DNA of 45,085 nucleotides, counting the filler, from Jimgerdemannia flammicorona (taxonomy: Eukaryota), in the NCBI GenBank assembly GCA_003990765.1. It is 2 parts of 2 records of this genome, joined end to end, with 100 filler letters (N's around TTAATTAATTAA, not from the genome) between each part and the next. Parts side by side here need not be neighbours in the genome. Positions count along the whole stretch, not along the records: positions 1 to 22,493 come from RBNJ01001266.1; 1 more part is not named here. The stretch is one strand, 5' to 3'. The position numbers were made by a program, and so were the translations under genes. The notes under the pieces are model-generated. The model did not search any database. It was not told the DNA's origin and worked only from the letters and a program-made list of their open reading frames with translations. This document shows, one piece after another, positions 1,325 through 38,358 of the stretch. Positions within the stretch are counted from its first letter, which is position 1. Each line of letters starts with the position of its first letter.

Positions 1325-2118
1325 ACCAAAACAGATATACTCCAGATATAGCTGAAGGCACCAAAAACTGTGAAAAAGTGGAGAAGACACCAATCAGACA
1401 CCAATAAAGGAGCAACTCATCACTATTGCCTTCTCTCTACTACCCTGCAATAGGTACAGCAAACCAACCCAAGGTAGAGGGGATAATAATTGTGGAAAGT
1501 GAACTCAGAAGGTCACTTACCAAACTATTATAACCAGTAAGGTAGCAGAGAAAGAGATATTGATGATATTATCTCTGATGAAGTAGTTATCTAGGAAGAG
1601 ATATTCATGGATTAATTCTCTCTGTTTACTGAGATAATAATATATTGGGACTTCATTACCATTCTATAGAATAGCATCATCTGTCTCATATACTAGATAA
1701 GGTATTGGTGGGTGAAGGAGGGGTATATTATCTTTGCTTTCATCAGATTTACTATCTGCATACCTTCTATAGGTAACAGTACTATGAGTTGCAGAGTTGT
1801 AATATGCTGGCAGTTATGTTTTATATTGCTCATACTCTGGTGGTAGAGTTGTTAGTTCAATCTTGAGGGTTGTCTGGAGATACAGATTATATTCTCTGGT
1901 CTCTTCATTATAGTTGAAGTAATCAGGAGTAAATATAGGTTGGTACTCATGTCAGTGATCATTATCTCAATAGGTCTCATAGATGGTTATGAACTGTTGT
2001 AAGTTCATCAGTAAGATTGGCAGAATAATCAGAGTTGTCAGAGATTCTTAGCTTAAGATCATATCAGCATCAGAGGGATTGTTATCTTCTACTTTATTAT
2101 CATCAAACCAGATTATAT

Positions 2119-4606
2119 TGTAAGAGGGTTACTTGTTAGAGTAACTATTATATAGTTCCAGAAGAGTTTTCTAGAAGTTCTGGATATTCTGAAAGACTGT
2201 TTTCTTAAGATTAAGATCAATTTTATATGGAGTATATCCTCTATGCTTATTGATTTCAAGATCAGATTGATGTCTCAACCAAAGTCCTTTTTCGGACTAG
2301 TTCTGGATATTCAGGATTTTCTATATTTCAGAAAGTTCAAAAAACTAAGACCAGCTTAGTTGAATTGGCATATTGCTGCAGACAATACCCAATTAGGAAA
2401 TTTCGTAATAGAGTTAGGAGTGGGACCTAATGGAGAGCAGATTTACTTAAGAGTATTGTGTGGGTTATTAAATAGGTTTTATTTACTATTTATGATATTG
2501 CTATACTAAGAGTAGTTGTATGAAGAGATATTGTAAGGAAGTACTCAGAAGTTGTATTCAGATTGTTTAAGTATTTAAGTCTGAGATTTTGAGGTGTAAG
2601 AGAGGGGGTATTTATACTAGTGAGGGGCTATCTGGACTATACTGAATATGGATATAGTACTTAGTACCTTACTGAGTCGAAATATAGTCACATAGTATAA
2701 GTGTGATCTAATATTTCAAGAGATCATCTAGCTACTGTGTCAGTTCACAGTCATGTTGTACAAGGCTAATCTAACTATACTATGACTGCTAAGCTATCTA
2801 TAGATTTAGACACTGTCTAGGTAGTCTTTGATGACATCACTATTGATGATATTATCTCTGATAAAGTAGTTATCTAGGAAGAGTTATTCATAGATTAATT
2901 CTCTCTATTCACTGAGATAGTAATATATTGGGACTTCATTACCATCTTACAGGATAACATCATCTGTCTCATATGCTGGGTATGGAGTTGATGGATGAAG
3001 GAGTGGTACATTGTCTTTACTTTCATCAGATTCACTGTCTGTATATCTTCTATAGATTACTACACTATAAGTTGCAGAGTTGTAGTTAGTGCTCTCAACG
3101 AATTGAATTGAATTGAATTTGGCCCAAACTTGATTCAATTTGATTGAATCAAGGGTCCAATTTGATTTGATTTGAATTGAATCAAAGGTCTAATTCGATT
3201 CAAAGTTCAATTCAAACCTTAATTTTCAAAATGTAATAACTTGATGAAAACTCATCCAAATTTAATGTATTTTAGCTTGTTAGATTTACCGTATTAATGT
3301 GATTCTAACAAGCTAAAGTACGTTAGATTTAGATGGGTTTACGCTGAGTTATTGCATTTTGAAAATTAGGGTTCAAATCAGACCCTCAATTCAATTTGAC
3401 TTTTGATTTGATTCACATTGATTCAAATTGAAAAATCCCCAATTCGATTCAACTCGTTTAACCCTCAATTCGATTCGATTCAAATTGATTTGACTCATTT
3501 GGGAGCACTAGTTGTAGTATGCTAGCAGTTGTGGTTCATGTTGCTTGTACTCAGGTAGTGAAGTGGTTGGTTTGATCTCAAGAGTTGTCTGAAGGTACAG
3601 ATTGTATTCTCCAGTCTCTTCATTATAGTTGAAGTAATCAGAGGCAAATGTGAGTTGGTATTCATACCAGTGGTCATTGTCCCAATAGGTCTCATAGGTA
3701 GTTATAACTGTTATAAGTTCATTAGTAGTATTGGTAAAGTGATCAGAGTTGGCAGGGATCCTTGGCTTGAGGTCATATCAGTATCAGAGGGATTATTGTC
3801 TTCTGTTTTATCATTATTAAATCAAATGATATCATAGACATCCTTCATAGTATATTCTACTTAGGGCATTTGTAGGATGTGGTCATCAGGGTGTAGGAAG
3901 GTTCTGTCTGTAATCTGAACATACTCAATATACTTATAGTTGAGTTCTTGTATTATGTCATTGATTTGGCCATAAGACAGAGTAGCAATCATTTTGGCAG
4001 TAGTAACTTAGAGTCAGAAAATATAGGTACTATACTCATAGAAGAGTTCTTGATGTTTGTAGGCAATGAGTTTCTGATGTTGAGGTATCTGGGTAATATC
4101 TGTATTATAGTAGTATTCAACTATGTCTTCTAGGAGATGGCTGATCTAATAGTAGCTTGAGATTTGTCTGATTCAGTAAGCCTTACTAAGTATGTTTAGG
4201 GCATTCTATTGGACTTCTATAAAGTAGAGGAGTACTAGGCTATAGATATTTATGAGGAGTAGAGGAGGAGTGGCTCAGTTGATAATGGTATTCCAAATAT
4301 CAGTATGGATGCAGTTGTAGATCTTGGTGGTTATGTTTGTATATGTTTAGAAGTTGTGGTTGTTTTTTTGGTTTGTTTTGATTCTCTGTTTTGATGTATT
4401 TCAGTACTCAGTATATATATATTTGGTCCTAATTAGTAAGATTCTGTTTGTATAAATATTGTATTCCATGACTTTGTATTGACTCAGCTTCATGATCTTT
4501 TATTCCATGACTTCGTATTGACTCAGCTTTGTGATCATGCAGGTGATTTCCAGATTTGTTCAGAGATTATATGTGATTTTAGTGGCTTAGAGGTTATGTG
4601 CTTATA
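2119..4606 (-). mobile_element. Complete solo LTR of the same chromovirus family inserted into the 3' LTR (contains MITE copy 2)
   Basis: Starts TGTAAG at 2119 and ends GCTTATA (eroded CTTACA) at 4606. About 2056 bp after removing the MITE, colinear with 17840-19921. Flanks gattatat | tatcatagatatcc rejoin to the uninterrupted LTR sequence seen at ~19115-19135. Confidence 0.88.
3087..3510 (-). mobile_element. hAT-type MITE, copy 2 (424 bp, opposite orientation to copy 1)
   Basis: Termini TAGTGCTCTCAA ... TTTGGGAGCACTA. Perfect 8-bp TSD GTTGTAGT at 3079-3086 and 3511-3518. The empty site is visible in the other LTR copies (~1797 and ~18800). Confidence 0.92.
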
Positions 4607-5409
4607 TATCATAGATATCCTTCATGGTATATCCAACTTAGAGCATTTGTAGGATATGGTCATCAGGGTGTAGGAAGGTTCTGTCTGTAGTTTGAATATA
4701 CTCAATATATTTATAGTTGAGTTCTTATATTATATCATCAATTTGGTTATAGGATAGAGTGATAACCATATTAGAAGTAGTAACTCAGAGACAGAAAATA
4801 ACAGTGCTATACTTATAGAAGAGTTCTCAGTGTTTGTGGGTAATAAGCTTCTGGTGTTGAGACATCTGGGTAATATCTGTGTTATGGTAGTGTTTGACTA
4901 TATCTTCTAGGAGATAGCTAATCTGATAGTAGCTTGAGATTTGTCCAATTTAGTGAGCTTTGCTAAGCATGTTCAGGGCATTCCATCAGGCTTCCATAAA
5001 GTAGAAGAGTACTAGGCTATAGATATTCATAAGGAGTAGAGGGGGTGTAGCTCAGTTGACAATAATATTCCAAATATTAGCACAGATGTAGTTATTGATC
5101 TCAGTGATCATGTTTATGTATATGTTCAGGAGTTGGGGTTGTTTGTTTGGTTTATTGTAGTTCTCTGTTTTGATACATCTCAGTACTTAGTATATATATA
5201 TTCAGTCTTGATTTGTAAAACTCTGTTTGTATAATTCTTATATTCCATGACTTTGAGTTAACTCAGTTTTATATACTGTAACTTTGGTTTGACTCAGCTT
5301 TGTGATCTTGCAGGTGATTTCCAGATTTGTTCAGAGGTCATGTATAATTTCAGTGGCTTATTCAGTAGGTGATATATGATTTCAGTGGCTTGGAGGTTGG
5401 ATGCTTACA

Positions 5410-5423
5410 ACTCTCCCCTTCTT
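5410..5423 (-). promoter_or_regulatory. Polypurine tract (PPT)
   Basis: Minus strand reads AAGAAGGGGAGAGT immediately before the TGTAAG start of the 3' LTR. Confidence 0.85.
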
Positions 5424-5844
5424 AGCTTTTGACATCCTTATTGGGACCTTCTAATTTTGATCTAGTGTTATTATATCATTTGGATGGTCAAAAGTCTGAT
5501 AAAGTTCATTTTCTCAGAAAGTGACATGCTCATAGTACAGTTGCCTAATATGTTGGATTTACTTATTAAAGAGTTATATATTCAATACTCTGTGCTGGAA
5601 GTAATTCTGACATTATTCACTACTGGAGAATTTCCTTTAAGGAATCTTCTTAAATGTCTATATCTTGTTTCCCACCAGTGGTATGGAGAAAATAGGCTAG
5701 CTTTCAGTTTTGCTATTTTTCTAAAGAGTTGGTATTTTATCTTAACTTGTTGAGTTTTTTTATTTTGTTCATGATAATTATAATTGTTTAGAAGAGTAAT
5801 ATATAGTATATACTAATAGGTGCAGAAGAGCTTGGGTTTCAGTT

Positions 5845-8800
5845 ATTCAAGGAATTATATTTCTGAACTAAGTTGGTGGTATTCTGGAGATTGGTCTTTG
5901 ATTCCTATATTGCATCATGGATTGAATAACCTTTCCATTTGACAAGGTACTCTGGATGGTTTTTGTGGCTACGTTTGTTGAGGATTTGTTCAACTTTGTA
6001 TTCTTCTTAGTCATTAATAATGATAGGTGCAAGTGATTCTGTAGTTCAGTTGAGAATAACTCATTGTTGTTTTTATTATATTGCTTAAGACATTGGACAT
6101 TGAAGACTGGATGAATCTTAATGGTATCTGATAGTACCAATTTATAGGAAGTAGATGAGACTTATGTAATAACTTTGAATGGTCCAATAAATTTGCTATT
6201 CAGCTTTGTAAATAGTCTGTATTTGAGGTTGTCAACTCAGTATCCTCAGATGTCCAGTAAAACTTTTTCTCCAATATCAAAAGTTTCTTCTTGACAATAT
6301 TGGTTAATATACTGTAACTGTTATTCTTGGGCTTGTAATAAATTCTTGATGGCAATCTGGCTTAAGTTTTATATTCAGAGTAGGAATTCTTCAATGGCTT
6401 TGACTATAGAGAGTTCATCAGTGATTTGGATAAGTATCCGAGAGGTGTTTGAGTTTTATCCTATATTGGCAAAGAATGGAGTAATTCCAAGAAAAGCTTG
6501 CTTACTATTATTGTAAGCAAACTTGACTGTAGTAAGGTGTTATGCTAATTATCTTATCTGTAGGAAATATAGTTCCTTAGCATTTATTCTAGAGTTCAGT
6601 TCATTCTTTTAGTTTAACTATCAGTTTTAGGGTAAAAGGCTATAGATAGTGTAAGTTTCATTCCCAGGTGAGTATAGAGGGCTTTCCAAAAATGGCTGGT
6701 GAATTTTGGGTCTCAATCACTAATAATGATCTTGGGAAGACCATGATAGTAGAAGATTTTATCAAACAAGAGTATAGCAATATCTGGTGCTATTGCAGTA
6801 GTAGTAGTTGGTATAAAGTAGGCTTGTTTGCTGAGATAGTCTATGAAAACAATAATTGTATCTTTCCCATTCTTGGTTTAGGGTAGTTGTATAATGAAGT
6901 CTATAGATATTTATTCCCAATTGGCAGATGGTACTAGGATTGAGTGGAGTAGATCAGGTTTTGCTAGTATTGAGGACTTGTTGCATTAGCAGGTATCACA
7001 GAAAGTGATATAGATCTTTAGCTAATCTGCCATATAGGGTCAATAGAAGTTTTAGGAAATAACTTCATAATATTTGTTAAATCCTAAATGTCTAGCTGTA
7101 GGGGCATCATGATATTTGAATAGGATAGTCCTTTGGAGGTCTCAGTTGTTTGGAATATACAATCTGTCCTTATAGTAAATAGTATTGTTCTTCGGTCAAT
7201 ATTGATGATACTGAGTATACTTGTCAGCATCATCACTACTCAGGATTTCTTGGAGTACTTGAGCTTCTTTATCATTAGTATATACTATGATAATTTGTTC
7301 CATAATAGAGTTTGTAACCAAGGTGAGAGTTGGATAACTTCTTTGATTAGTAGTCTGGAGATTGTATCAGCAACAACATTTTTCTTGCTAGAGTGATACT
7401 GGATTTCATAGTCAAAGTTGGTAAGGACTTTCATCCATCTGACTTGCTTTTGAGAAAGAGTAGCCTGAGTCTTAATGTTGACTAATGACTTGTAGTTAGT
7501 CAATATAGTAAAGTGTACTATTTTTAGATATAATTGATATTTAATCAAGGTATCTATGATGGAAAACATTTCTTTCTCATAGGTTACATAGTTGATTTCA
7601 GTATTATTGAACTTGTGGGAATAATAGGCCATAGGGTATTCTTCTTGTATGAGTACTGCTCTAAGAGCTAGATCAGAGACATCAATAGTAACTTCATAAG
7701 GTAGGGCAGGGTTTGCTGCTTGAAGTACTGGAGTGGTTATCAAGATATCTTTTAGTGCTTGAAAGGCTATATCTTATTCAGGTTACTAATTTATAAGATT
7801 GTTGAATTCTTTCTCTTGTTTCATAGTCTAGGGTTGTTCTTCTTTCTTACTATGCTTGGTTATTTGGGTAAGAGTAGTAGTGATCTTGGCAAAGTTGGCA
7901 ACAAATCACTTATAATAGTTTGCTAATCCCAGGAATAACTGGAGGTCTTTCAGCTTCTTGGGTCTGGGCCAATCCTTGATTGCAGAGATTTTGCTGGAGT
8001 CCACTTTGATTCTATTTAGTATGACAATGTGTCCAAGGAATTGAATTTTCTTCACATTTGCTGAGTTTTGCAAAGAGTTGGTTTTCTTGGAGTTTCAGTA
8101 GTATATACTAGTTTAAGGTGTTTGAGATATTCCTCCAGAGTTTTGCTGAAGACTAGGATGTTGTCAATATAGACAATAACAAATTTATCCAGATATGGGT
8201 ATAGGATGGTATTCATCAATATCTGAAAGGTTACAGAAGCATTAGTTAAGCCAAAGGGTATAACCAGAAATTTGAAATGTCTATAGCAGGTTTGGAAGGC
8301 TGTCTTGTAGATATGTATCTTCTTCTTTCATGGCAATTTGCCAATAGCTATTTCACAGGTCAAAAGAGCTCATGAACTGTGGGTTGGTAAGCCTATTGAA
8401 TATTTCATTGATTCTAAGTAATGAGCAACAGTTCTTAATAGTCTGTTCATTGAGGTCACAGTAATCAATGCATATTTATAGGTCTTCTCCTTTCTTGACA
8501 ACAAAGAGAACTGGTGCACTATAGGGTGATCACTGGGTCTGATGAATTCTTGTTCTAGAAGTTTATTAATTTTTTTTCTTGAGTACATCAATCTCTCTCA
8601 AAGATATATAATAGATTGATTTGAAGGCAGGCTTAGTATCTGGGATAGTCTTGATGGTATAGTCTACTGCTCATTTAGGAGATAGATCTTTCAGGAGTTT
8701 CTTCAGAAATATATCTCAGAATTTCTAGAGTAGGGGTCTGACATGGCTGTCAACTTTAAAAAAGTCTTCTTCAGAGTTCTCAGGTTCTTCTTTGGATAAG

Positions 8801-9390
8801 TGAATAAAGATGGCAAAGAGAGGACATTTCTTAGCCAATTTCTTGAGCTGTAGTTTGTTGATGTGAGTGATCTTTGGTCCAGGGTCACTAGAACTGAGTG
8901 GGTCTTTTTTGCCTTGCAGTTTGAAGTTATGGTATCCTTTCTTAATGGTTAGAGAATGGTTTACCCAATTGATCATAGAGTTCTCTTGTTTCAACCATAG
9001 GGTCTCAAGAATGATTTCATTGTCAGAAAGTGATACAATCTGGAGGGTAACATATACTCAGTAGTCATTAATTCAGAAGAGTAGGTTGCAGACTTTCTTG
9101 CTAATGACATATAAGGTTCCATTAGCTGTGGCAACTACTTGAATTTGTTGTACCAGAGATATGAAAACCTTGAGTCTGTTGGCTGTTTCTTTATTAATGA
9201 AGTTGCCTGAGGTACCACTGTCTATCATAATCTTGACAGGTGCTTGATTGACAAAAGCTTGAAGTATAAGCAGTTTGTCTGATCCAATGGTAGTGATTTT
9301 GGTAGTAAGAGCTTTCCTTCTATTGGTTCTTCTTTGAGCCAGTTCATTGACATAAGAGAAGTAATCATCAATTATTTGGAAAGAGTACAT
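5845..9390 (-). pseudogene. pol: pol relic: aspartic protease, RT, RNase H, integrase, chromodomain
   Basis: PR 9073-9390 (VKIMIDSGTSGNFI). RT ~8000-8600 (YIDNILVFS at ~8146-8172). RNase H 7285-7743 (IDVSDLALRAVL, EINYVTYEKE). IN ~6070-7120 (HPVFNV, FIGPFKV, SIDFIIQLP). Chromodomain ~5870-6007 (EEYKVEQILNKRSHKNHPEYLVKWKGYSIHDAI*E). Many stops and frameshifts. Confidence 0.93.
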
Positions 9391-9492
9391 TTCAATGCCA
9401 TAGAGATATCAGCTACTAGATATATATCTATCTTTGATTTTCTTGTAGAATTGTTCTTCTTTGCTTACAGTAGGTTGGGCTGGGGCCTTATT

Positions 9493-9903
9493 TGATGAGC
9501 CAAATTCTTTGGATCCTCAGATGGTGGGTAGTAGTTCAGAGACTTCCTTGACTGTAAAAGTTGACTCAATTTTTTTGAATAGAATCTGCATAATACAGAA
9601 ACCAATAGGGATCTTGAATGGTATCCAACTGTGATTTCAGATGAGGATAATAATTTTACTTGTGTAATCTTTATCAATGACTTCTCTTTCTACTGAGAGT
9701 CCTTTTAATGCTAGGCTACTGTAACAGCATATTTTTCCAATATGTCCTTCTGGTATTTGGATGCTGATTCCAGTATAGACTTGTTTGACTTCTCAGTTGG
9801 AAACTGTAACTTCTTTAGCTACATATAGGTCATATCCAGCTGCTTTTTGACTTCCTTTGGTTGGGGCCTTAGCAGTTTATCTTAACTTAATAAAGTCTAT
9901 TGT
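9493..9903 (-). pseudogene. dut: dUTPase domain (trimeric type) in frame between Gag nucleocapsid and protease
   Basis: Single frame: TIDFIKLR*TAKAPTKGSQKAAGYDLYVAKEVTVSN*EVKQVYTGISIQIPEGHIGKICCYSSLALKGLSVEREVIDKDYTSKIIILI*NHSWIPFKIPIGFCIMQILFKKIESTFTVKEVSELLPTI*GSKEFGSS. All five dUTPase motifs are present (AGYDL; [R]SSLA; [G]VIDxDY; [R]I[A]Q; [R]GxK[G]FGSS). The bracketed deviations are C>T/G>A changes. Confidence 0.93.
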
Positions 9904-10644: not shown

Positions 10645-12699
10645 ATGGCAACCAACAAGTGTCCTGAGGTGTGTACTGGGCAGAGTGGCCCTGGAGTGTT
10701 TGAATGGTAGCAAGTGGGGAGAGGCCCTGGCTTGCAGGGAAGCATGAGGGGCCTGCTGGTGGGAGGATGCAGTAGAGGAGGGGGTGGGGCTGGAGGTCAA
10801 GGGTCTGCTGGTGGCAATGGGGGAAGATCTGGACTCCCGAGCTTCCCGGACAAGGTTAAGGAGAGTGGGTGGCTGGCAGGTACTAGGACTGGAGCTGCTG
10901 AGGGGAAGGGTAAGATGAGCCTTAGAAGGGGGGGTGGTGCTCCAGCTGGGAGTGCAGGAGTAGGGGCTGGAGGCACTGTGGCTGGAGGTGTGACTGTTGA
11001 TAGGAATGTGACAGGGAATCAGGAAAAAAAAAGAGATGTGACAGCTGATGGCCAGGTGGGGCAGGGATTCCTGATGTGGAAGGGGGACCTGGCAGATAGT
11101 GTAACAGGGCTAGTAGTGACCCCATTGCTCAAGAAGTCGATCTCAGAGTTCGTGGTGACCTTGTGCTTCAGGGGCTTGGTAGTAACAGTGAGGATGGTTC
11201 TGGGGCTTATTTCAAAGCAGGTGGCTGGGGCGGTCTTGGTGAAGTTCCTAAAGGGTCTGGAGGGGGTTGAGGTGGGCTTTGAGGAGGCAGGCCTACTGGA
11301 TGAGGCGCTGAAGACTGGTGTCATGGTTGGGGAGATGGTGGTCCCTATAGTGTGGTACCTGCAATGAGATCCCAGGGTAGTACAGCTTCTGGTGAAGGGG
11401 GTGCTCATGGTGACTAAGGAGGAGACTAGGAAGAGGGTGGAGGAAGTGATGGTTGAGTATGGTGATGTGGTGGACATTGGCTTTCAGGTGTGGGAGGGGA
11501 TGATGATCAGGATGGGTAATGTTGATGTCAGGATTCAGCTGGTGGGCAAGGAGACCATGGGGAAGGCGAGTGACTGGCTTTCTGTGCTGATGTGGGGGGC
11601 ATTCATCTGTAAGGTTTCAAGGGTGAAGGGGAGTGAGGAGGAGGAGGAGGATTTGTTGGAGGCACTGGAGGAGATGAGTGGAGCTGTGGAGAGGAGAGCA
11701 AGGGCCTGGAAGATGTATGAGGAGTTGATGCATCTAGAGGTTGTGGATGAGAAACATATCTGTACTGACAGAAAGCTGTGGGAGTAGGCACAGGGGTGCA
11801 GGAGACAGAGAGAGCTTCTAGCAAGTATAGTGGTGAAGGCAAAGCAGAGGGCAGTGGGAACTGAAGGGTCTGGGGGTGTCAAGGCCAGTGTTTGGGTGAG
11901 CAAAGGGGGTGGGGAGGTGGAGGTAGATAAGAAAGGGGCTGAAAAGGTGCTGAGCAAGGACCCCTTTGCTGATGGCACTTTTGAGGTTTGGGAGCTAGAG
12001 CTGGATACAACCTCCCCTCTTATCAGGAGGGGCCCGGCTGAAAGGAGGCAGACATCTGAGGATACGCTGATGAAGGGGGCCCAGCAGGTGCACTTTGGGA
12101 TCCCTGATGTGGAACAAGGGGGTCAGGTGGTGGCAGTTGGTGAGGATGAGCTGGTGGATGTCCCTGAGGAGGAGTGGGATGAGGCTGCCAGTGTAGGGAC
12201 TGACACCACAATGTTGGATGTTGGACAGCCAGGGACTCTGGGAGGGAAGGAGGTGGGGAACTTGCTGTAGATGAGCAAGATGATAGATAATCTTGTAGCT
12301 GAGTCTTTGGGAGAGGTGGATCTGTGGGTAATGCCTGAGGAGCATTGGGCACAGATTCTGCATGGTGAGGGAGTGGTGGAGGCACTGAAGGGGGAGATTC
12401 TTTTGATTTTCCTGGAGGAGGAGGGATATGAGGTTGATGAGGTGAGGAGGGCTGAACTGGTAGTGGTCGCTGGGGAGTGGGCAGCATACTGTTGGGTGGA
12501 GCAGCATGGTTTGCAGTTCTAGCAGGAGGCTTGTTGGGAATATTGTGAGAACTTTGAGGAGCAAGAAGATGGGGCAATGGTAGAACTTCTGGGAGGCTTG
12601 GAGGCACAGAAAGCTGGTGAGAGGGAACTAGCTACAGATCATGACTTGGATTTGTTGCAGGAGGAGCAGGATGCAGCATTGTAGAGGGTGGATTCATGA
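10645..12699 (+). pseudogene. LINE ORF1 relic (684 codons, one frame, several premature stops)
   Basis: ATG at 10645. ORF-track pieces 10714, 11392, 11830 and 12271 share this frame. RRM-like segment (LLVKGV...YGDVVDIGF...GNVDVRI). TGA at 12697-12699. Confidence 0.75.
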
Positions 12700-15600
12700 T
12701 ACAACATTTTTCTCTTATGAACAGTACAACCAATGTTTTCTCTTTGAATGTGAATGGGCTAAGGGGATCTGGGTGGTATAAAAACATTTTTAACTGGCTT
12801 AAGGGATTGGAGGCAAATCTCTTTTTATTGCAAGATGTTTAGTGTGAGAATGAGGATGATCAGGTTGAGTGGACTAGGAAATGGGGTGGGGCTGCTACTT
12901 GGTTTGGAAAAGTGCCAATTCTGGTGAGGAAGGGTAGAGGTGACTTGGGGGGTATTGGGAGCTGGGGTGATCACTTGGTCTGGGGAGATTGGCATCGGCC
13001 AGGGTAGGAGTCAGTGAGGGTTAGCTCTTGCTACTGCCCTGCAGTTAGGGGTGAGAGGATTGCATGGATTAAGGAGCTGCTGGAGGAAGGTATTCTCTTG
13101 GAGGAAGAGATTGATGTGCTTGGGGGGGACTTTAATATGGTTCGGGATCAGCATCTAGACCAAACTGATGATGGGCAGGGTACAGGAGGGAGGAGTAGAG
13201 ACCTGGATGTATGGGAGGAGGTGGAGAGGCTGAGCTCCTTAGGAGATATGGGCAGAATATGATGGGGCAACTCAAGGGTCTACACACATTGGGTGAATGA
13301 CTTAGGTACAAGGATTGACTGGATTCTGGCAGCAGATTGTTGGGGGTCTGATATCTGGAAGGCTTTGGAGATAGATTGGTGCTCATGATCTGATCACTGG
13401 GGACTGTTGGGACAGGGGTAGTTTGGGGGGAGTGGAGATGGACCTAGACATTGGCACCTTAACTCCTCTCTGCTAGCTGAGAAGGAGTTGTGGGACTCAT
13501 GGGTAGAGGACATTCAGGCGAAAATTTTCTGCTGGAGGTGTGAGGGTTTGTCAGTGGGTATCTGTTGGATGAGATTGAAAGAGGCTGTGAGGGTCTATTG
13601 GGGAGGGGCTGAGAGAGAAGAGGGGAGGCGAAGGAGGAAGCACATGAGGTGTGCTTCCAATAGGCTGAAGAGATTGCATATAAATTGGGCAGGTCTGCTT
13701 GCTGCTGATGAGGTAGAGGACTGGAGGTTGGCATGAGTTAGATTGGAGATAATGGAACTACAACAGGTGTTGAGAGAAGAGGAAGAGGTGCATATGTGAG
13801 GTATGGCTGCAAGGCTATGGTGGCAGGGGCTCAAGGAGGGTGAGTGGCCTACTAGATTTTTGTCCCATCTGCTCAAAACTAGGAGGGTGAGGTATCGGTG
13901 GGATGGAGTCCTATGTGCCAATGGGGATATGGTATATAGCACACAATGAATCTTAGGGGTTTTGAAAGAGAGATGGTAGGGTTTGTGGAGTGAGGAAGAA
14001 GGGGATACTGATGGGGTGGCTATTGAAGATACATTAGGAGAATGGAGGCTGCCGCAAGTGGCTGGACTGGATGACTTGGCCTTGCCAGTGTGAGGTGAGG
14101 AGGTCCAGAATGTCCTTGCAGCAACTAGACCCGGAATAGCACCAGGGGAGAACAGACTACCATGGGACTTTTAGAAGAAGATGGTTATGGTCCCTGGTGT
14201 TTTGGGTGAGATAACTGCTCTCTGTGATCATGTTCTTCAGAGTGGTGAGTGGGTTGGAGAGCAGGACCTCAGGCTGGTGGCTTTATTGTATAAAGATAAG
14301 AGAAGGAGAGAAGACTGGAAGAACTGGCAGCTGATCATGCTTTTGGACATGGATAGGAAGATGGTGACTAAGGTGGTTGTTGCAAGGCTGCAGAAAGTTG
14401 CTCAACAGATGCTGGGGGAGGAGCAGTGGGGCTTTGTTGGGGGTAGACTTATAAGAGATGGGACTGCTTGGGTGCATGGTGTCATTGAAGGGGCCCGAGC
14501 TTGTGGCTTGGATGGAAGGTTGGTTTTCTTGGACCAGGAGAAGGCCTACAACTGGGTCCGGCAGGTTTGGCTGAGTAAGGTGTTGGATCATATTGGTATT
14601 CCCCCAGGATTTCGGGCTTCTATGTTGAGTCTGCTAGAGGGTAGTTGGGTGGTACTGATGTGCAATGGTTACTGTGGTCTGGCATTTACCTTGGAAAGAG
14701 GGGTTCCTCAGGGGGACCCCCTGTCCCCTATTCTGTATGCCCTCTCTTTGGAACCTTTGATGGATAGAATTTGCCAGAAAGTGGTAGGGCTCTCTATCTA
14801 TGATATAGTGTGGAAGGTGGGAGCATTTGCAGATGATATGATGGTTGGCCTTGGGTCTGTGGCAGATGTTGAAGTAATTAAGGTGGTAGTGGATTAATAT
14901 GAGAATTACTCTGGGGCGAAGCTCAACTGGCATAAGTGTGAGACTATGGTGTTGGGAAATGGGCTGGTGGGTGGAGATATCATTGGAACAATTGTCCCTA
15001 CTGGTGAGGTGGTATGGTATCTGGGCATCTTCCTCTCTATGTATGGCTCTGTCCTGCTATGAGTGTGGTGGGAGAGCAGGGTGGCTACTTGGGGGGAGGC
15101 CCTTTGAGGTTGGGGAGGCCACCATATCTCTCTAGCAGGGTGGGTAGCAATTCTGAATGTGTACTGGTTCCCCAAGCTATGGTATGTGGCCTACCACCTT
15201 GACTTCTCAGCTTGGATGGTGAAGAGGCTGATGAAGGTGGCTAGGGATTGGATTTGGGCAGGGCAGAGGTTCCATATACTCTTGTAATATCAGTAGTTAG
15301 GGGAGATCTTGGCCTTATAGATTTCCCTAAGAGATTGCACTGCTTGTGAGTCTGGTGGTTGAAGAGAGCAGCTGAACTGCAAGGAGGGGGTTAGGTGCCT
15401 CTGTTGCAGAAGGTGTGGGAGATGCGAGCCTCCCCTCGAGGGTCCTCAGGAGACCTACTCTCTTTGGTAGGGCTCAAAGGAATTCAGAGGCTGAGATTTA
15501 AGGGCTTTTGGTGGGGAGTGGTTGATGGAGCATACAGAATTTGTCTGCACTAGCAGGGCAATGAGGGGGAGATATTGTGGGGACCTAGTATATAGTGATG

Positions 15601-16216
15601 GGATAGATTGCTACTGAAAGGTGCTCCACTTGCTGCTTTTGATATTGGGGATGGAGTGGAGTATCAGCAGGGTCTTGGCCAGGATCTTTGGCCAAGTGGC
15701 TAGCAGGCAGTCAGGATTGGCAAGGAGTGGGACTGGGTGGGTATCTGGTCTTAGAGTGCTAAGGTATGGTGGTGGCTTCCCCCCAAGTTCTGGGTGGTGT
15801 GGTGGCAAATACTGCGGTGGAATATCATGCTGAATTTCTGCACCAGGCATCTGGTGGATGGTGGCTGTTTCAATTGTGAGGAGTGTTACAATGTAGGGCA
15901 AGCTGGGGGTTTGGTGCAGATACTGGAATATTGGCTGGGAGATTGTGAGATTTTGGGGGACTTTTGGGTTGCAATAGGAGATAGGCTGGGTGTGGGGCGC
16001 AGACTGGTGGGTGAGGGGGATTGCTGGGAGGGCTTGAGGTCTTGGCTAGTGGGGGGAGTGGGGGATAGTTGGCTTACTATTGGGTGGGTGTTAGCAATTT
16101 GGGTGGGTTTAGCAGAACATTGGTTATTTGTGTTTGAGGAGGGGTGGCAGGTGAGCCTGCAGGAGAAGGTCTTAAGGTGGGAGGAGCTGCTGGGAGATCT
16201 GATGACTGGATGGTGA
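12696..16216 (+). pseudogene. LINE ORF2 relic: APE endonuclease, reverse transcriptase, C-terminal Cys domain
   Basis: APE motifs SLNVNGLRG, GGDFN, RIDWIL, SDH. RT motifs QWGFVGGR, DQEKAYN, GVPQGDPLSP, AFADD. C-terminal CFNCEEC. Contains stops and frameshifts. Confidence 0.93.
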
Positions 16217-16428
16217 ATAGGTTGGGGTCCTTCAGGGGGGTGATGGTGAGGTTTGGTGATAAAGATATGTGATCAGAGTGGTGGGAGGGTAGGAATTGTA
16301 TTCGATAGAGTGGTATTTCATTGAGAAGGGGTAGGGGGGAGGGGCCCCCCTAGGGGGATAGGGTAGGGGGTGGGTTCACTGTACTTATATGGGATAGATG
16401 GGTATAATAAAGGAAGAGTCTGAGTGAC

Positions 16429-16464
<36 letters not shown>

Positions 16465-17824
16465 GCTACAGGATGGGCTCTATATCCTGGGGCATTGTTT
16501 GCTACATTCTGGGCAATAACTGTAGATTGAGTATCCCATATAAGGGGCTTCTTAGGAAGGATTTGCCACCATTCTTTAGCAGGTCCTCAGAAGAATATAA
16601 TAACTTGATGGATATAGACCATAGTAGTAGCAAAGAGTTGTTCCAGAGTATGGTCTTGATTATTTGTTAGAAAGCAGTCAGCAACTTGCTCATTGGTCCA
16701 TTGATTGGCTTTAAAGTTGATATCAACTATACTAATGAAGCTTTGGACTTCTTATGTAGTACCATTAAAGATAGATAGGCTCAGATTTTTAGTTGGTCAG
16801 GTCTGTTCGGCTAAGGCAGTAAAGGTTGCTGCCATTATGGCTACCTGAGTTATAAGGTCTAGAATCTGTTGATTTGCCATGTTGTTTACTGGAGACAGTT
16901 GGACTACTGGTAGTTGGGTTACTGATATGACTTGAGGTACTGGTATAGAGTATGATGGTATTCTTTAGGTCTATGTAAGTTACTGGAGTAATAGTTGTAG
17001 GTCTGGAGTAAGGGCTTGATAGATAGCTGTCTATTGCTGTATAGGTATGTTCTGTCCTGATAGAGGTGCATCTCCTTCAGTAGTATATCCAGGATTGAAT
17101 TCACTGAGATACTCCTTCTTCTCTTTAGCTTGGTCCTTATGTAGTTGGGTTTGCTCAGCATCGAAGTAGACAGAATCAGTTGTATATCTGATTTCAGATA
17201 GGCTTAATTCAAAATCAAGTTCCAGTTCAGTATTGGTTTCAGATTTAGATAAGATTATAGCTGAGCCTGCTTCTGGTTTGGGGCCAGGTTGTTGATAGAG
17301 AGTTACTCTTACTTCTTCTTTAAGAATATGGTAGACCTTGCAATTCTGGAAGCAGTAGTATAAGGTGGTCTTGGTTCTTGTATAGTGAAAGTCAGTAGAG
17401 TTGAGCTACTTGGCTATAGAGGCTTAGACTTTATGAGAAACTAAGGCTAGAAAGACTGCTGCTGGTTATCCTAGGTTGCTCAGATTTGTAGAGCTGACAA
17501 AACTCTTATTGAGAAGAGTAAAGAAGACTTCTATAAGACCTTCTTTATCTTGACTTGCTGGGTGTAGAGCAAGGAGTTTGGTATATAGGGTTTTATCTAT
17601 TTACTGATTTAATTAGAGTACTCTTTCTTTAAATGAAGTTTGTCCCACTTGTTGTAGGTGTGGAGGTCAAATTGTCCTTATGTTAGGTTTAATTCTCTCT
17701 GGATTGTCAGATGGTTTAGGATAAATTCCAGTTCAGAGATTGGGCTTTATACCAACTTATAGGAATTCTCAGAGAAGTTTGTAGTAGAGTGAGAAAGTAT
17801 CTTGAAGTAGAATTGAATTGTAAA

Positions 17825-17836: not shown

Positions 17837-17839
17837 AGT

Positions 17840-19921
17840 TGTAAAAGAGTTACTTATTAGAGTAACCATTACATAGTTCTAGAAGAGTTTTCTGGAAGTT
17901 CTGGATATTCTGAAAGACTGTTTTCTTTAGGTCAAGATCAATTTTATATAGAGTATATCCTCTATGCTTATTGATTTCAAGATTGAATTGATATCTCAAC
18001 CAAAGTCCTTTTTTGGACTAGTTCTGGATATTTAGGATTTTTCATATTTCAGAAAGTTTAAGAAACTAAGACCAGCTTAGTTGAATTGGCATATTGCTAC
18101 AGACAATACCCAATTAGGAAATTTTGTAATAGGGTTAGGAGTGAGATCTAATAGAGAGCAGATTTACTTAAGAGTGGTTTGTGGGTTATTAAATAGGTTT
18201 ATTTGCTATTTATGATATTACTATACTAGAAGTAGTTGTATGAAGGGATATTGTGAGAAAGTGCTCAGGAGTTGTATTTGGATTGTTCAAGTCTTCAAGT
18301 CTGAAATTCTGAGGTCTGGGAGAGGGGGTATTTATACTAGTGAGGGGCTATCTGGACTAGACTGAATATGGATGTAGCACTTAGTATCTTGTTGAGTTGA
18401 AATGCAGTCATATAGTACAAGTGTGATCTGACATATCAAGAGATTATCTGACTGCTGAGTCAGTTTACAATCATATCATATAAGACTAATCTAACTATAC
18501 TAATGACTGCTAAGCTATTTATAGATTTAGATGCTGTCTGGATAGTCTTTGATAATATCACTATCAATGATATTATTTCTGATGAAGTAGTCATCTAAGA
18601 AGAGTTATTCATGGATTAATTCTCTCTGTTCACTGAGATAATAATACATCAGAACTTCATTACCATTCCACAGAATAGTATCATCTGTCTCATATGCTGG
18701 GTAAGGTGTTAGTAGATGAAGAAGGAGTGCATTATCTTTGCTTTCATTAGATTCACTGTCTGCATACCTTCTATAGATAATAGCACTATAAGTTACAGAA
18801 TTGTAGTATACTGACAATTGTACTTCATATTGCTTATACTCTAGTGGTGGGATTGTTGGTTTGATCTTGAGGGTTGTCTGGAGATACAGGTTATATTCTT
18901 CAGTCTCTTCATCATAGTTGAAGTAATTAGGGGTAAATATAGTTTGGTACTTATACTAGTGGTCATTATCTCAATAGGTCTTATAGGTAGTTATGAACTA
19001 TTATAAGTTCATCAGTAAAGTTGGTAGGGTAATCAGAGTTGGTAGAGATTCTTAGCTTAAGGTTATATCAGCATCAGAGGGATCATTATTCTCTGCTTCA
19101 TCATTATCAAACTAGATTATATTATAGATATCCTTCATAATATATCTAACTTGGGACATTTGTAGAATATGGTCATCAGGGTGTGAGAAGGTTCTGTCTG
19201 TAGTTTGAATATACTCAATGTACTTATGGTTGAGTTCTTGTATCATATCATTGATTTGGCCATAGAATAGAGTGGCAATCATATCAGTGGTAGTAACTCA
19301 GAGACATAAATAACAGTACTATACTTATAAAAGAGTTCTTAGAATTTGCAGGCAATGAGTTTCTGGTATTGAGACATCTGGATAATGTCTGTATCATAGT
19401 AGTGTTCAACTATGTCTTCTAAGAGATAGCCAATCTGATAGTAGCTTGAGATTTATTCAATTTAGTGAGCTTTGCTAAGTATGTTTAGAGTATTTCATTG
19501 GGCTTCTACAAAGTAAAGAGGTGCTAGACTATGGATATTCATGAGAAACAGAGAGGGTGTAGCTCAGTTGACAATGGCATTCTAAATGTCAGCATAAATG
19601 TAATTATAGATCTCAGTGGTTATATTTATATATATATTCAGAAGTTGAAGTTGTTTGTTTAGTTTATTGTAGTTCTTTGTTTTGACACATCTCAGTGCTT
19701 AGTATATATATATTTGGTCTTGATTAATAAGACTCCATTTGTATAATTCTTATATTCTGTGACTTCAAGTTGACTCAGCTTTGTGTACTGTGACTTCAGT
19801 TTGACTCAGCTTCATGATCTTACAGATAATTTCCAGATTTGTTCAGAGGTTATGTATGATTTCAGTGGCTTGTTTGGCAGGTGACATGTGATTTCAGTGG
19901 CTTGGAGGTTGTGTGCTTATA
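17840..19921 (-). repeat. Uninterrupted 5' LTR (2082 bp)
   Basis: Ends TGTAA...CTTATA. Minus-strand TATAAATA at 18329-18336 (also 2609-2616 in the solo LTR) and AATAAA at 18198-18203 imply a U3 of ~1.6 kb. Confidence 0.92.
18527..19623 (-). pseudogene. LTR(U3)-encoded ~365-aa ORF of unknown function (other copies at 2806-4334, and 1558-2118 plus 4607-5111)
   Basis: One long frame in the three LTR copies. ATG retained at 5109-5111. Stops in one copy are mostly CAA/TGG in another. Terminal TAA shared at 18527 and 2806. Preceded by a TA-run at 19703-19713. Confidence 0.8.
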
Positions 19922-21456
19922 AGTATCCAGAAGTGATACCAAGAACAAGTCAAGAACAAAATTGCTATTATAGTTCTTAGAGCAATTGAATGACAATAAA
20001 ACTCTACTGAACTATCATCTGTCAATATATATATTACTGAAGACCTTAATCCAAATAAAGCCCAACAATGTCTTGATAGAATATAATATTTTCAGGCTTT
20101 CTGCTATTAACAAGAACTTAAGGAATACTATAAGATAGAACACCTTATCTATCAATAAGCTACCCTTAGTACTGTCAAGCAATGAGTCTATCTTTTTATT
20201 GATAACTATACTTATATAGTTGCCAAACAACTCTATATCCTTTTCTATACCAGACCCTAAGTTCTTGATCATCTCTGTAGAGTATTCCCTAAAAATATCA
20301 TCAATTTGAATGATGAACAATAGAGCAAAATTATTTTTCAAGTAGTTCAGTATATTGTTCACCAGTTTGATAAATATCTAGAGTTTAGTATTGAGTCTAA
20401 TGAGTAGGCTTAAGTAAAGAAAAGAAGAATATAATAAATTAATACAAGCCTCTGAAATTTCTATAGAAATTTCTATAGAATTTCTAACTAGCAGTTATAG
20501 TTACTTAAAGTGGTATAACTATATAGATATACTTAGTACACTATATTTAATCATAGCCTTGAATATATATAAATACTCTCTATACTGAGTATGTTGTAAC
20601 CTCAGCTCTACTTTCTCTAAATATAAGAATAAAGTAATATTCTTATTATAGAAACTCCTCAGATTCAACTTGTTAATAATTCTAAGTTTGATTAACTTGA
20701 GATATAAGTACAGCTATTCTCATCAGTACTAGAACCAAAAGTAATACTTGGACTCTGCTACATTAGATAATTGAAACTCAGAACTTAGAGCTAATAGTTA
20801 TTATTAATTATCTGTAATATATTAATTCTATCAGTATATAGTTTTATTATAAATAGATATTTAAAAATAAAGTAATTTATTTAAGAGAAAATTATGATAT
20901 ATAATCTGAATTAAATATAAGTTAAAGAATAGATATTTAATTATATTATTTAAATTTAATTTCTAATATAATATAATTATTATTAGTAAACTTATATAAA
21001 TAACTCTAGAATTATAAGTAAATAAACCTTAGATTAAAATAATTTAGAAAGAATAAGTAGTTTGATATATAAAGAAATCTTTAGATATATAATTCTGAAA
21101 GTTAAAAGAATTTAAAATAAAGAAATCTGATATACTTTTTAAGTTAAGTATCTACTATATTATAATATATAGAATTTCTTTAAGAATTTCAAAAATAAGA
21201 AAGTTATAAATTCTGATTATATGTGAATTTTAGTTATATATAAATTTTCTTTCAAATAAAGAACTAATATATTATTATATTATTATAAGCTATTAAGAAT
21301 TTCAAATAAAATTAAAATTTAATTTAATTTAACTAATTTGAATTGAACCTTCAATTCAATTTGAATTAAATCAAATTGGACTCTGAATTTGATTTGAATT
21401 CAATTCAATTCAAATATGAAAATCCCCAATTCAATTTAATTCATTTGGGAGCACTA
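19922..21456. mobile_element. Extremely AT-rich TE relic ending in the same hAT-type TIR as the MITEs
   Basis: ...TCATTTGGGAGCACTA ends at 21456, with AATTC/AATTG subterminal repeats from ~21310. Decayed plus-strand frame at ~20020-20430. No partner TIR is visible. Confidence 0.55.
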
Positions 21457-22493: not shown

Positions 22494-22593
22494 NNNNNNN
22501 NNNNNNNNNNNNNNNNNNNNNNNNNNNNNNNNNNNNNTTAATTAATTAANNNNNNNNNNNNNNNNNNNNNNNNNNNNNNNNNNNNNNNNNNNN
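22494..22593. other. Artificial contig linker
   Basis: Exactly 100 nt of N with TTAATTAATTAA (stops in all six frames) at 22538-22549. Confidence 0.95.
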
Positions 22594-27631: not shown

Positions 27632-27940
27632 CTAAAATAGGAGCGTTGTTATAGCTGTAATCCCTGTGGCCACGGCTGCAATCGCACACGTCAGACACAT
27701 AGAGATTACGCCAAGGGCGCCGATACTTTGAAGAATCGCAATGACACCACCGGCGGCAACGGCGCCTCCATAACTTGACATAAAGGATGCGGCCGCAGTT
27801 CCGGCAACGATTCCACCGGCTCCGAACCCAAGAAAGGTCACCAACAGGGGGGCGACATAGGGAACTGCAATCAAGCAAACGACACCAACGGCAACGGGGA
27901 TGGCGATTTTGAGGATTTTGCGGAAGTTCCAACGAGCCAT
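27632..27940 (-). CDS. IFI6/IFI27 (ISG12)-like small hydrophobic protein, 102 aa
   Basis: LGFGAGGIVAGTAAASFMSSYGGAVAAGGVIAILQSIGA matches the Ifi-6-16 family signature. Intact ATG-to-stop ORF. Confidence 0.85.
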   Translation of the reverse strand: MARWNFRKILKIAIPVAVGVVCLIAVPYVAPLLVTFLGFGAGGIVAGTAAASFMSSYGGAVAAGGVIAILQSIGALGVISMCLTCAIAAVATGITAITTLLF

Positions 27941-29062
27941 ATGTTTTTCTGTGGTGGGGGTATGTTGATTATGTTAATTTTCGCAGTGGGAAATATGAAT
28001 GGAAAAGTAGCGTCATTAAAATATTTATACATTATATCTACAATGCCAAATACACAAAGGAACATTTCGTGACACCGCCAGACAAACAAAGGGAGCAAAT
28101 GGACACAGAAGATTACGCCGAATGGATCGGCCATCCAGGGTAACCCAGCCCAATCCTACCCATGACAGTGGCCCGATCCGTTACAACCGGGTTGACGGGT
28201 TGATTGACATAATTATGTTCTTGGTTCTTCAAAGAAAATGCGGCAAAATAGAACTGTAGATCAACTCTTTGTCACCGTTACTTGAAAGTCTCCCAGTTTC
28301 TCAATTAATTATGAATACTGAGCGTTTTAGGAAAATTGAGCATTCCTGGAATGTCAGACTGTCGGTATTGACCGTGTTCCGGAAGGCGGCAACATACTTA
28401 TTATTACAAGAATGTAAAAGGACTAGTGCTCCTAACAAAATGAATATCAGCCCATCCTCCTCCGCATCGCGGACTTCCCCATGTTCTTCAAGCATGTCAA
28501 CGGAAGGAAAGAGCACTCCCTTGCACATATATAACAGCTCCTCAACAAGTCCAATTTCACAACTCAAAAAATTTTCGCACACCCCTTCCCTTTCGCGAAT
28601 TCGAATTGCAGTCCTGGAATTGTGCTGGTTTGTACGAAGAGACACCTTGCGCCTATGTTGCGAAATATTAGCTTGGCACCCGGCCCCAGACTAGTTTGGC
28701 GAGGAGTTTTCCATTTCTGCACTTTTGGTTGTTAACCCTGGTCGACCCTCGACCCGTTAGGAGCCCTATTACGTGCACATTGGCCATCAAAGATCATTAG
28801 CCAAAGTTCCTGATTGGTTTTTACTGTACATTACATGGATCACGTCTGTGAGGATTAATACCCAACGAACCGAAGCAAATACTAGTTTAGGCGCAATAAT
28901 TGAGGCAACCATTATAAACAGTTTTACGGGCGATATTAAGTGGGGGTAAAATATTATAACCGCGATAATTATATAATTATATAAAATTGTTGACATCACG
29001 TTTCCTAAGCCACCTCCATCACCGTCCTCTTGACCAACAAAGCAACGTCCGACCATCACGCC

Positions 29063-29665
29063 ATGCCAGAAACCCCCGAGGAAAAGACCCGCCGCTTCCA
29101 GATCGAGCTCGAGTTTGTACAGTGCCTTGCGAATCCGTGGTACCTCCACCGTGTGTGTTCCTCAATTATCCTCTCCTCGCTGACTGATGATAGGACTGGT
29201 TCTGACACCATCGTCTTCATTCCACCAAACAGACCTGGCACAACAGGAGTATCTGAAGGATCCGGCTTTTATCAACTACCTCGATTATCTACAGTACTGG
29301 AAACGGCCCGAATACGCCAAGTTCATCATGTGCGTCACAAACCTGCCCGTGTATCATATGTTGCTCGAATACCTCTTATTCAACCCCCTTTACCTATGGT
29401 CTCACTAACTTTCTTCACATTTTCTTAAAGATACCCTCACGCCCTCCACTTTCTTGACCTCCTTCAACACCCCGCCTTCCGCGACAAGCTGATCCTAAAG
29501 AAAGAAACGGAAGCCATCCACCAGACACAATATTACCATTGGGCGTACTACCGGAACCCGCCGCGCACGCAAGGGGCACCGGAGGTGGGCGCACAGCAGC
29601 AGCAGCAGCAGCAAGAGCTGGCGAACGGGGGACCGGCAGCTGACGGCGCGGCGCAGAGAGCGTGA
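29063..29665 (+). CDS. MED31: Mediator subunit 31 (SOH1)
   Basis: Exons 29063-29150 (RFQIELEFVQCLANPWYL), 29233-29329 (LAQQEYLKDPAFINYLDYLQYWKRPEYAKFI) and 29431-29665 (YPHALHFLDLLQ, poly-Q tail), with GT-AG introns in phase. Confidence 0.97.
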
Positions 29666-35823: not shown

Positions 35824-36197
35824 ATGTCTGGCACGGAAATACAGCTGACATATTCTGACGAGGACAGTGGCTTCACGTTGATAGAGAAGCGGTGGGGAGT
35901 GACAATGAAGAATCCCAAGTAGTAAGTGGCAAACCAAAGTCTCAGAATTTAAACCGGCACATATGCCGCGGAAACCTCTGCTTCTTTGATTGAGTATACA
36001 AGCCATATGTAATACGTACTAATATTCATTTGGAACGTAGTATTTTGCCAAGTGACGAGACGGAGATCAACCGGCTGGATTACCAACACTACGCCATGCG
36101 GTAGGTGGACGACATAGGACGACAAGTTTATTACATGTAAGCCATTAAAATGCCTTCACAAATTAATCTAAATTGCCTTACTCTCTCTTACCGCCCA

Positions 36198-36245
<48 letters not shown>

Positions 36246-38311: not shown

Positions 38312-38358
<47 letters not shown>

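Follow-up and report, generated by a model that had tools for sequence, protein, structure and literature searches.

The long terminal repeats (LTRs) of a Ty3/gypsy chromovirus in the fungus Jimgerdemannia flammicorona carry the remains of an open reading frame (ORF) of about 365 codons, and we favor, at a probability of roughly 55%, the reading that the LTR of this dUTPase-bearing element once held a genuine accessory gene lying wholly within it. The element was found in a stretch of 45,085 nucleotides from assembly GCA_003990765.1, two parts of two records joined end to end (hereafter the window), where it lies on the minus strand and its 2.1-kb LTR is present in three copies, as judged by self-BLAST, a three-way alignment, and the junction sequences. 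Copy A is the 5' LTR, copy B is a solo LTR inside the 3' LTR, and copy C is that 3' LTR. Because the gene would lie wholly inside the LTR, every LTR copy, the solo one included, carries the ORF. All three copies in the window are dead, broken by mutations resembling those of repeat-induced point mutation (RIP), by 1-nt deletions (A and B), by an insert (B), and by splitting and truncation (C). Coordinates of these and other features are collected in the table below.

A first-pass annotation of this DNA had proposed such a cryptic ORF on the gag-pol strand, recoverable by comparing the three LTR copies, and both the restored frame and two natural proteins that together tile it, described below, bear the proposal out. 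As it had claimed, the 5' and solo LTRs have each lost 1 nt at a different point, copy A in codon 105 (19311/19310) and copy B in codon 210 (3706/3705). Copy B also has a 425-bp insert after codon 272 and, like copy A, ATA in place of the start codon. Copy C retains its ATG, has 12 internal stops, is broken in two after codon 167, and ends 12 codons short of the full ORF, the rest of the LTR being missing as well; an apparent extension of its first part past codon 167 was rejected as a spurious alignment into the upstream region of copy B.

We restored the ORF by one rule applied to every alignment column, whereby a C found in any copy prevailed over T, and a G over A. This yielded 1098 nt, the consensus length proposed earlier, and the copies did repair one another: codons 42-43, for example, read CAA-TGA, CAA-TAG, and TGA-TGG in the three copies. 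The start codon of the ORF is 305 nt in from the LTR's 5' end, and the stop also falls within the LTR, so that LTR sequence flanks the ORF on either side. Outside the ORF region, the restored LTR contains no other ORF of at least 70 codons. Fusion to pol was considered and rejected: in the restored sequence, the 305 nt preceding the ORF still hold three stops in its frame, which rules out a continuation of pol, and one of the two natural proteins shares the start Met of the ORF. We also built a profile of 353 positions from the three copies, aligned as seven in-frame pieces in which X replaced each stop. Copy A matches the profile at independent E values of 1e-55 and 5.5e-152. Compared with a six-frame translation of the window, the profile matched the three LTR copies only, and we therefore rejected both a fourth copy of the ORF and a duplicate of the element's gag.

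Within the ORF, pairwise divergence of the copies is 17-18%, and transitions make up about 90% of it (A-B 183/202, A-C 167/186, B-C 168/200). The 5' and 3' LTRs, although they belong to one element, are 17.0% divergent, as far apart as either is from the solo LTR; since they were identical at insertion, nearly all of the damage arose in place. The mutated share of copy-sites was 0.545 at CpG, 0.321 at CpA, 0.200 at CpC, and 0.088 at CpT. We read the damage as RIP-like C>T/G>A mutation of both strands with a dinucleotide preference, acting after insertion, and methylation-driven CpG decay may have contributed. A GC skew had suggested APOBEC-like editing of one strand, which we ruled out because C sites (0.235 of copy-sites) and G sites (0.258) are mutated about equally.

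A restoration of this kind could in principle create what it seeks. If there was never a gene, the open frame would have been produced by choosing stop-removing bases in an AT-rich mutated repeat; the rule lowers the stop count in every frame, any stop can be explained as a former CAA, CAG, CGA, or TGG, and in the C-terminal half two other frames become open over stretches exceeding 120 codons. The same rule applied in six frames, however, does not treat them alike. The claimed frame keeps 5 stops in 366 codons, 4 of them internal and one terminal, and the other five keep 16, 40, 9, 26, and 21. The first-pass annotation had itself named equally open alternative frames as what would tell against its proposal; we found 9-40 stops in those frames versus 4 internal ones. 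When the restored sequence was shuffled 5000 times with its dinucleotides preserved, no shuffle had any frame with 5 or fewer stops (the minimum was 6), and only 0.24% of the shuffles had a frame with at least 40.

The distribution of stops among the copies singles out the same frame. Stop columns in the claimed frame are mutated in one, two, or three copies in 9, 10, and 3 cases, respectively, and the 3 triple-copy stops compare with 3.7 expected if all stops arose independently after insertion. In the other five frames we counted 10-38 triple-copy stop columns, versus 0.4-3.7 expected, an excess indicating that those frames carried stops from the outset; the triple-copy count thus fits the claimed frame alone. 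The share of G at codon positions 1, 2, and 3 of the restored ORF (28%, 10%, and 14%) has the periodicity of coding sequence.

We then searched the profile against 1,835,955,588 representative proteins and obtained three matches at E<=0.001, two of them strong. The first, P0002, is a hypothetical protein of 128 aa from JGI/IMG (E 2.5e-57), encoded on a contig of 1180 nt. It spans codons 1-128 unbroken and begins Met-Thr-Thr-Glu, the same as the window ORF. The first-pass annotation had to assume CGA at TGA codons common to all copies, and P0002 indeed has Arg at the three all-copy stops (codons 20, 54, and 109); it also has the expected Arg-Trp at codons 42-43. It differs from the restored translation at 19 positions, of which 12 are explained by deamination in all three copies and 7 are true differences. 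The second strong match, P0001, comprises 247 aa from ENA (E 7.2e-94), on a contig of 998 nt. It spans codons 115-365 and ends on the same terminal residue as the window ORF. Aligned with the restored translation, it shows 66.4% identity, 83.4% similarity, two 2-residue gaps, and zero frameshifts. P0001 and P0002 jointly cover the ORF from end to end, and their outer ends coincide with its start and stop.

Both strong matches are unbroken natural proteins in the claimed frame and, being free of the window's stops, are not translations of the same broken locus. Taken with the frame tests, they leave very little room for the absence of a gene, which we regard as extremely improbable, and make it very likely that a real ancestral ORF existed. 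The third match, P0003 (436 aa, E 1e-5), was rejected as a homolog; it consists of six repeats of a unit of ~70 residues, each weakly resembling profile positions 110-147, has scattered and unrelated weak Pfam matches, and its resemblance is at the level of a motif or of chance. Further homologs were not forthcoming: P0001 and P0002 are both singleton clusters, a word-index search with P0001 returned only itself among 81 candidates, and DNA matching the homologs was confirmed in none of the pattern matches from two scans of metagenome contigs (597 and 351) or two scans of viral contigs (106 and 340).

P0001 is divergent enough to ask what kind of changes have accumulated. Of its 83 replacements relative to the restored translation, 42 (0.51) score positive in BLOSUM62. 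Neutral simulations started from the restored sequence gave a conservative share of 0.30 +/- 0.05, with maxima of 0.47-0.52 in 1000 runs at matching divergences; with the simulations carried to the divergence of P0001, no run of 1000 came up to 0.51, and at half the divergence, the maximum was 0.575. The excess of conservative replacements points to selection on the protein. A second figure, the fraction of neutral runs that stay free of stops, was 0.6-9.6% depending on how the divergence is split. The called-ORF bias that affects this figure, taken up below, does not enter the conservative-replacement excess. We consider it probable that the ORF was kept by selection as part of the element.

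Several points weigh against reading these remains as an accessory gene. The freedom of P0001 and P0002 from stops is partly built in, as protein databases take called ORFs only. A single full-length intact copy was not seen, the tiling being by two fragments on short contigs, and P0001 begins at an internal Met, on a contig that may be broken or closed upstream. After restoration, the two rival frames in the C-terminal half are open for 124 and 128 codons; stop counts are therefore weak there, and that part of the ORF rests on P0001. The placement of the ORF in the U3 region, its own promoter, and the poly(A) site are proposed from position and motifs only; a look-up of public sequencing runs for 18400-19750 listed none, RNA included. 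Searches for family, fold, and motif, reported below, support no particular function. Finally, P0001 and P0002 are known from protein sequence alone.

This last point leaves room for a second reading, in which an ancestor of the family captured part of a cellular gene, or of a different element, into its LTR and carried it passively, with no role for the retrotransposon. The constraint seen in the comparison with P0001 would then predate capture, or P0001 would be a cellular homolog. LTR retrotransposons do take up foreign ORFs, as in the elements of bdelloid rotifers described in the accessible part of PMC5408684. A conserved cellular gene, however, should be present in annotated fungal proteomes, and we found just two fragments among 1.84 billion representatives. 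P0002 is moreover nearly the same as the window ORF, 7 of 128 residues differing once deamination is allowed for, and the ORF is complete with a conserved start and stop rather than a fragment. We regard capture as improbable. Three features, namely the completeness of the ORF, the conservation of both of its ends, and its near absence from annotated proteomes (as would be expected of repeat-masked sequence), lead us to infer that it was an accessory gene of the element rather than a passenger.

How such a gene might have been expressed is suggested by the motifs around it. The first-pass annotation had noted a TA-rich box of the ORF's own upstream of the start and an ORF end ~190 nt before the main box; the former (TATATATATA) is kept in all three copies, and the distance from the stop to the latter (TATAAATA) is 191 nt. 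The ORF can be placed in U3 by position, because it lies upstream of the conserved TATAAATA and AATAAA. The LTR is thus laid out with two putative TATA modules, one on each side of the ORF. Tandem sub-repeats occupy the 5' end of the LTR, built on a 10-mer, GCTGAGTCAA, and a 14-mer, AGCCACTGAAATCA, each present twice; the TGAGTCA within the 10-mer is reminiscent of an AP-1/Gcn4 site. We propose that the sub-repeats and the TATATATATA box, both in the first 230 nt of the LTR, would act as a promoter, and that the LTR's own poly(A) signal would terminate the ORF transcript, giving an mRNA of ~1.5 kb. Each LTR could then be a self-contained transcription unit, expressed from solo LTRs too. We hold this proposal, and with it the candidate role of TATATATATA as the promoter of the ORF, at a little under even odds.

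A different mode of expression is suggested by mouse mammary tumor virus (MMTV), in which a complete sense ORF of ~1 kb, sag, lies in an unusually long LTR and ends shortly before the main promoter. Under an MMTV-like mode, translation of the chromovirus ORF would be confined to transcripts of the element, whether spliced or subgenomic, that begin at the 5' LTR's main promoter and end in the 3' LTR; the upstream TATA-like box and sub-repeats would be an ordinary U3 enhancer, and solo and 5' LTRs would be silent for the gene. The layout, with the whole ORF in the LTR ending shortly before the main TATA box, is that of MMTV, and U3 is part of every full-length element transcript, as is established for retroelements. 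In MMTV, the 3' LTR open reading frame controls superantigen expression, according to the portion of PMC2118998 available. A short upstream ATG between the TA box and the ORF start, present in copies A and C, would hamper a short private leader. Against this mode, the sub-repeats lie 1.4-1.6 kb upstream of the main TATA box and only 60-190 nt upstream of TATATATATA. A distance of 1.4-1.6 kb is far for compact fungal promoters. Nor were splice signals identified. We therefore think MMTV-like expression rather unlikely, if still a contender, and return to the self-contained unit as the tentative proposal.

The protein product resembles no family that we could recognize, in agreement with the first-pass annotation. 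None of the seven window pieces matched Pfam at E<=1, nor did P0001 or P0002, and the profile matched no PDB sequence at E<=10. The C-terminal 247 residues, as represented by P0001, have an isoelectric point of 4.05, with 18.6% D+E, 4.0% K+R, 14.6% F+W+Y, and 9.7% Pro. AlphaFold2 modeled this segment with a mean predicted local distance difference test score (pLDDT) of 31.7, and 0 of 247 residues reached 50; the ESM Atlas model of P0001 has a predicted template modeling (TM) score of 0.15 and a best structural TM score of 0.30, with no usable feature match. The acidic, Tyr/Pro-rich tail of ~240 residues is therefore probably disordered for the most part. The N-terminal 128 aa were predicted as five helices (pLDDT 54.3, predicted TM score 0.45), suggesting with modest confidence that the first ~125 residues are helical. 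Foldseek found no match to this model in the PDB at E<=0.001. The best row from VIA-align was a membrane-protein helix bundle (Z 8.4, root-mean-square deviation 3.2, 101 residues aligned), followed by unrelated helical proteins; a Z of 8.4 is within the tool's range for unrelated helical models, and no fold is singled out.

One detail of the first-pass annotation did not survive. A putative PPxY-like motif, PPPEY in the restored translation, is PLSEY in P0001, so that the motif is not conserved, a further point to be set against an accessory role. A predicted helical head with an acidic, aromatic, disordered tail would suit an activator-type regulator or adaptor acting for the element better than it would an enzyme, although such a role remains doubtful in our estimation.

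The host element is itself recognizable despite its decay. Read-through translations of pol contain stops throughout and run through three frames, and Pfam domains follow the order protease, reverse transcriptase, RNase H, integrase, chromodomain, which is that of a Ty3/gypsy chromovirus; the direct LTRs and a purine-rich tract at ~5417-5432, directly preceding the 3' LTR, agree with this assignment. A dUTPase domain, of a kind that has been reported as an accessory in some Ty3/gypsy elements of fungi, precedes the protease. Copies A and B of the LTR have TG...CA ends.

Features of the window. Copies A, B, and C are the three LTR copies of the chromovirus; coordinates are positions in the window.
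Feature	Coordinates	Strand	Remarks
5' LTR, copy A	17839..19928	-	2090 nt; TG...CA ends, followed by internal region; self-BLAST, three-way alignment
Internal region of chromovirus	17838-5417	-	Between 5' LTR and 3' LTR
Solo LTR, copy B	2119..4610 (about)	-	Inside 3' LTR; self-BLAST, alignment
3' LTR, copy C, part 1	4611..5416	-	ORF codons 1-167 (5111-4611); ATG kept
3' LTR, copy C, part 2	1559..2119	-	ORF codons 168-354; homology stops at 1558
LTR ORF, copy A	18527..19623	-	14 internal stops; ATA for start; terminal TAA 18529-18527
LTR ORF, copy B	2806..4334	-	In-frame pieces 4334-3708, 3705-3520, 3084-2809; 12 internal stops
TATATATATA box, candidate promoter element	19703..19712	-	~80-90 nt upstream of ORF start; kept in B (4421-4412) and C (5200-5191)
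Tandem sub-repeats	19770..19902	-	LTR 5' end; in B and C too
GCTGAGTCAA x2	19779-19770, 19810-19801	-	10-mer containing TGAGTCA
AGCCACTGAAATCA x2	19870-19857, 19902-19889	-	14-mer
Main TATAAATA box	18329..18336	-	Downstream of ORF stop; kept in B (2616-2609)
AATAAA, candidate poly(A) signal of LTR	18198..18203	-	Kept in B (2483-2478); role putative
Insert, 425 bp	3087..3511		Inverted ends, duplicated ACTACAA; interrupts copy B and its ORF
pol	5854..9873	-	Pfam on read-through translations
dUTPase	9873-9493	-	Pfam, E 9.7e-24
Protease	9282-8935	-	RVP_2, 6.4e-08
Reverse transcriptase	8306-8103	-	RVT_1, 1.8e-10
RNase H	7779-7414	-	RT_RNaseH, 3.4e-20
Integrase	7144-6635	-	Integrase_H2C2, 1.5e-10; rve, 2e-4 (under curated cut-off)
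SH3	6212-6078	-	SH3-like domain, Pfam
Chromodomain	6000-5854	-	Chromo, 2.2e-10
Ifi-6-16 exon-sized host ORF	27635-27973	-	Pfam
Med31 exon-sized host ORF	29009-29425	+	Pfam
Class I methyltransferase exon-sized host ORF	36382-36771	+	Pfam
GRDP-like exon-sized host ORF	41570-42085	+	Pfam

No target-site duplication was recognizable around the solo LTR in the junction sequences (4605-4615 and 2115-2122), and its flanks rejoin to uninterrupted copy A sequence with zero extra bases. These junctions hint at ectopic recombination or conversion rather than plain insertion followed by LTR-LTR recombination. A second copy of the 425-bp insert of copy B lies at 944-1312 in opposite orientation and is 92% identical, and there is a self-match in direct orientation too; the insert and this second copy are a small foldback element or one resembling a miniature inverted-repeat transposable element.

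The rest of the window contains further repeats and host genes. Nested within the chromovirus gag region is another retroelement (10690-16500, + strand, opposite to the chromovirus), with an RVT_1 match at 14175-14894 (E 3.9e-18), four consecutive in-frame ORFs parted by single stops (10711-12519), and an A-rich tail at ~16401-16500. Its highly unusual composition (G 38%, C 13.5%, GC ~50%) is not AT-enriched, in contrast to the DNA around it. It has the look of a non-LTR element that either came in once the RIP-like process had acted or was spared by that process. Adjoining the 5' LTR, the block at 20001-21000 has 24% GC and is probably a further hypermutated repeat. Runs of N, 44 each, lie at 22494-22537 and 22550-22593. 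The right half of the window is ordinary gene space with intron-bearing eukaryotic genes, as indicated by the exon-sized ORFs with Pfam matches there, and this gene-bearing part also has homopolymer A/T runs of 40-50 nt (36196-36248, 37595-37658, and 38303-38356). In a language-model comparison, the closest neighbors of the methyltransferase piece are eukaryotic, with Ascomycota and Mucoromycota the most frequent, which fits a fungal host.

Among known systems, the closest in layout is MMTV sag. The chromovirus LTR has a complete sense ORF upstream of a main promoter, the promoter being placed by its motif, and shares with sag the length of ~1 kb, the unusually long LTR, the presence of a copy in every LTR, and the end shortly before the main promoter. 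The two differ in other respects. MMTV is a betaretrovirus, whereas this ORF belongs to a fungal Ty3/gypsy chromovirus and shows no sequence relation to sag, no Pfam family having been matched; its product, unlike Sag, is acidic and shows no hydrophobic membrane segment by eye, and a superantigen role would make no sense in a fungus. Accessory coding sequences also occupy the U3 of the 3' LTR in human and simian immunodeficiency viruses (nef) and foamy viruses (bel/bet), where they are duplicated to the 5' LTR and lengthen the LTR. Those genes, however, start in the internal region and overlap U3, whereas the chromovirus ORF has both start and stop in the LTR.

Extra genes beside gag and pol are found in other retrotransposons. 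The additional ORFs (aORFs) of plant elements and the CERV ORF of Cer1 in C. elegans are likewise mostly orphans, according to the parts of PMC7264820 and PMC10309623 available. The plant aORFs and the CERV ORF, unlike the ORF described here, are internal; those covered in PMC7264820 lie before gag or between pol and the 3' LTR, some of them antisense, and the phrase "in the LTR" does not occur in that review. The element crapaud of Podospora is a similar chromodomain Ty3/gypsy element with heavy RIP and a variable 5' half of the LTR, but the available part of PMC10787394 describes gag and pol ORFs only and mentions no LTR ORF. In the literature outside most subscription journals and supplements, we came across no retrotransposon, fungal or otherwise, whose LTR contains a gene; work on an ORF in or within an LTR concerned MMTV or other retroviruses, or used "LTR ORF" to mean gag-pol.

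LTRs are usually treated as non-coding control regions and masked before gene calling, which makes a gene in an LTR invisible to standard annotation, and such masking fits the finding of just two fragments among so many representative proteins. Hypermutated repeat copies, played against each other, can recover a lost gene, and the recovered profile can find intact relatives. The fullest version of our reading, a fungal LTR family with a self-contained LTR gene whose orphan acidic protein acted in trans, for instance in activating the LTR or blunting genome defense, we think unlikely as a whole, though worth stating. If the gene did work for the element, LTR-embedded accessory genes would not be confined to complex retroviruses. 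Each insertion would deliver two copies of the gene, and a solo LTR would stay a potential expression unit; solo LTRs, normally deemed inert scars, would then be units that spread a trans-acting factor. The arrangement would be a fungal, non-retroviral counterpart of that of MMTV sag, built on an unrelated protein.

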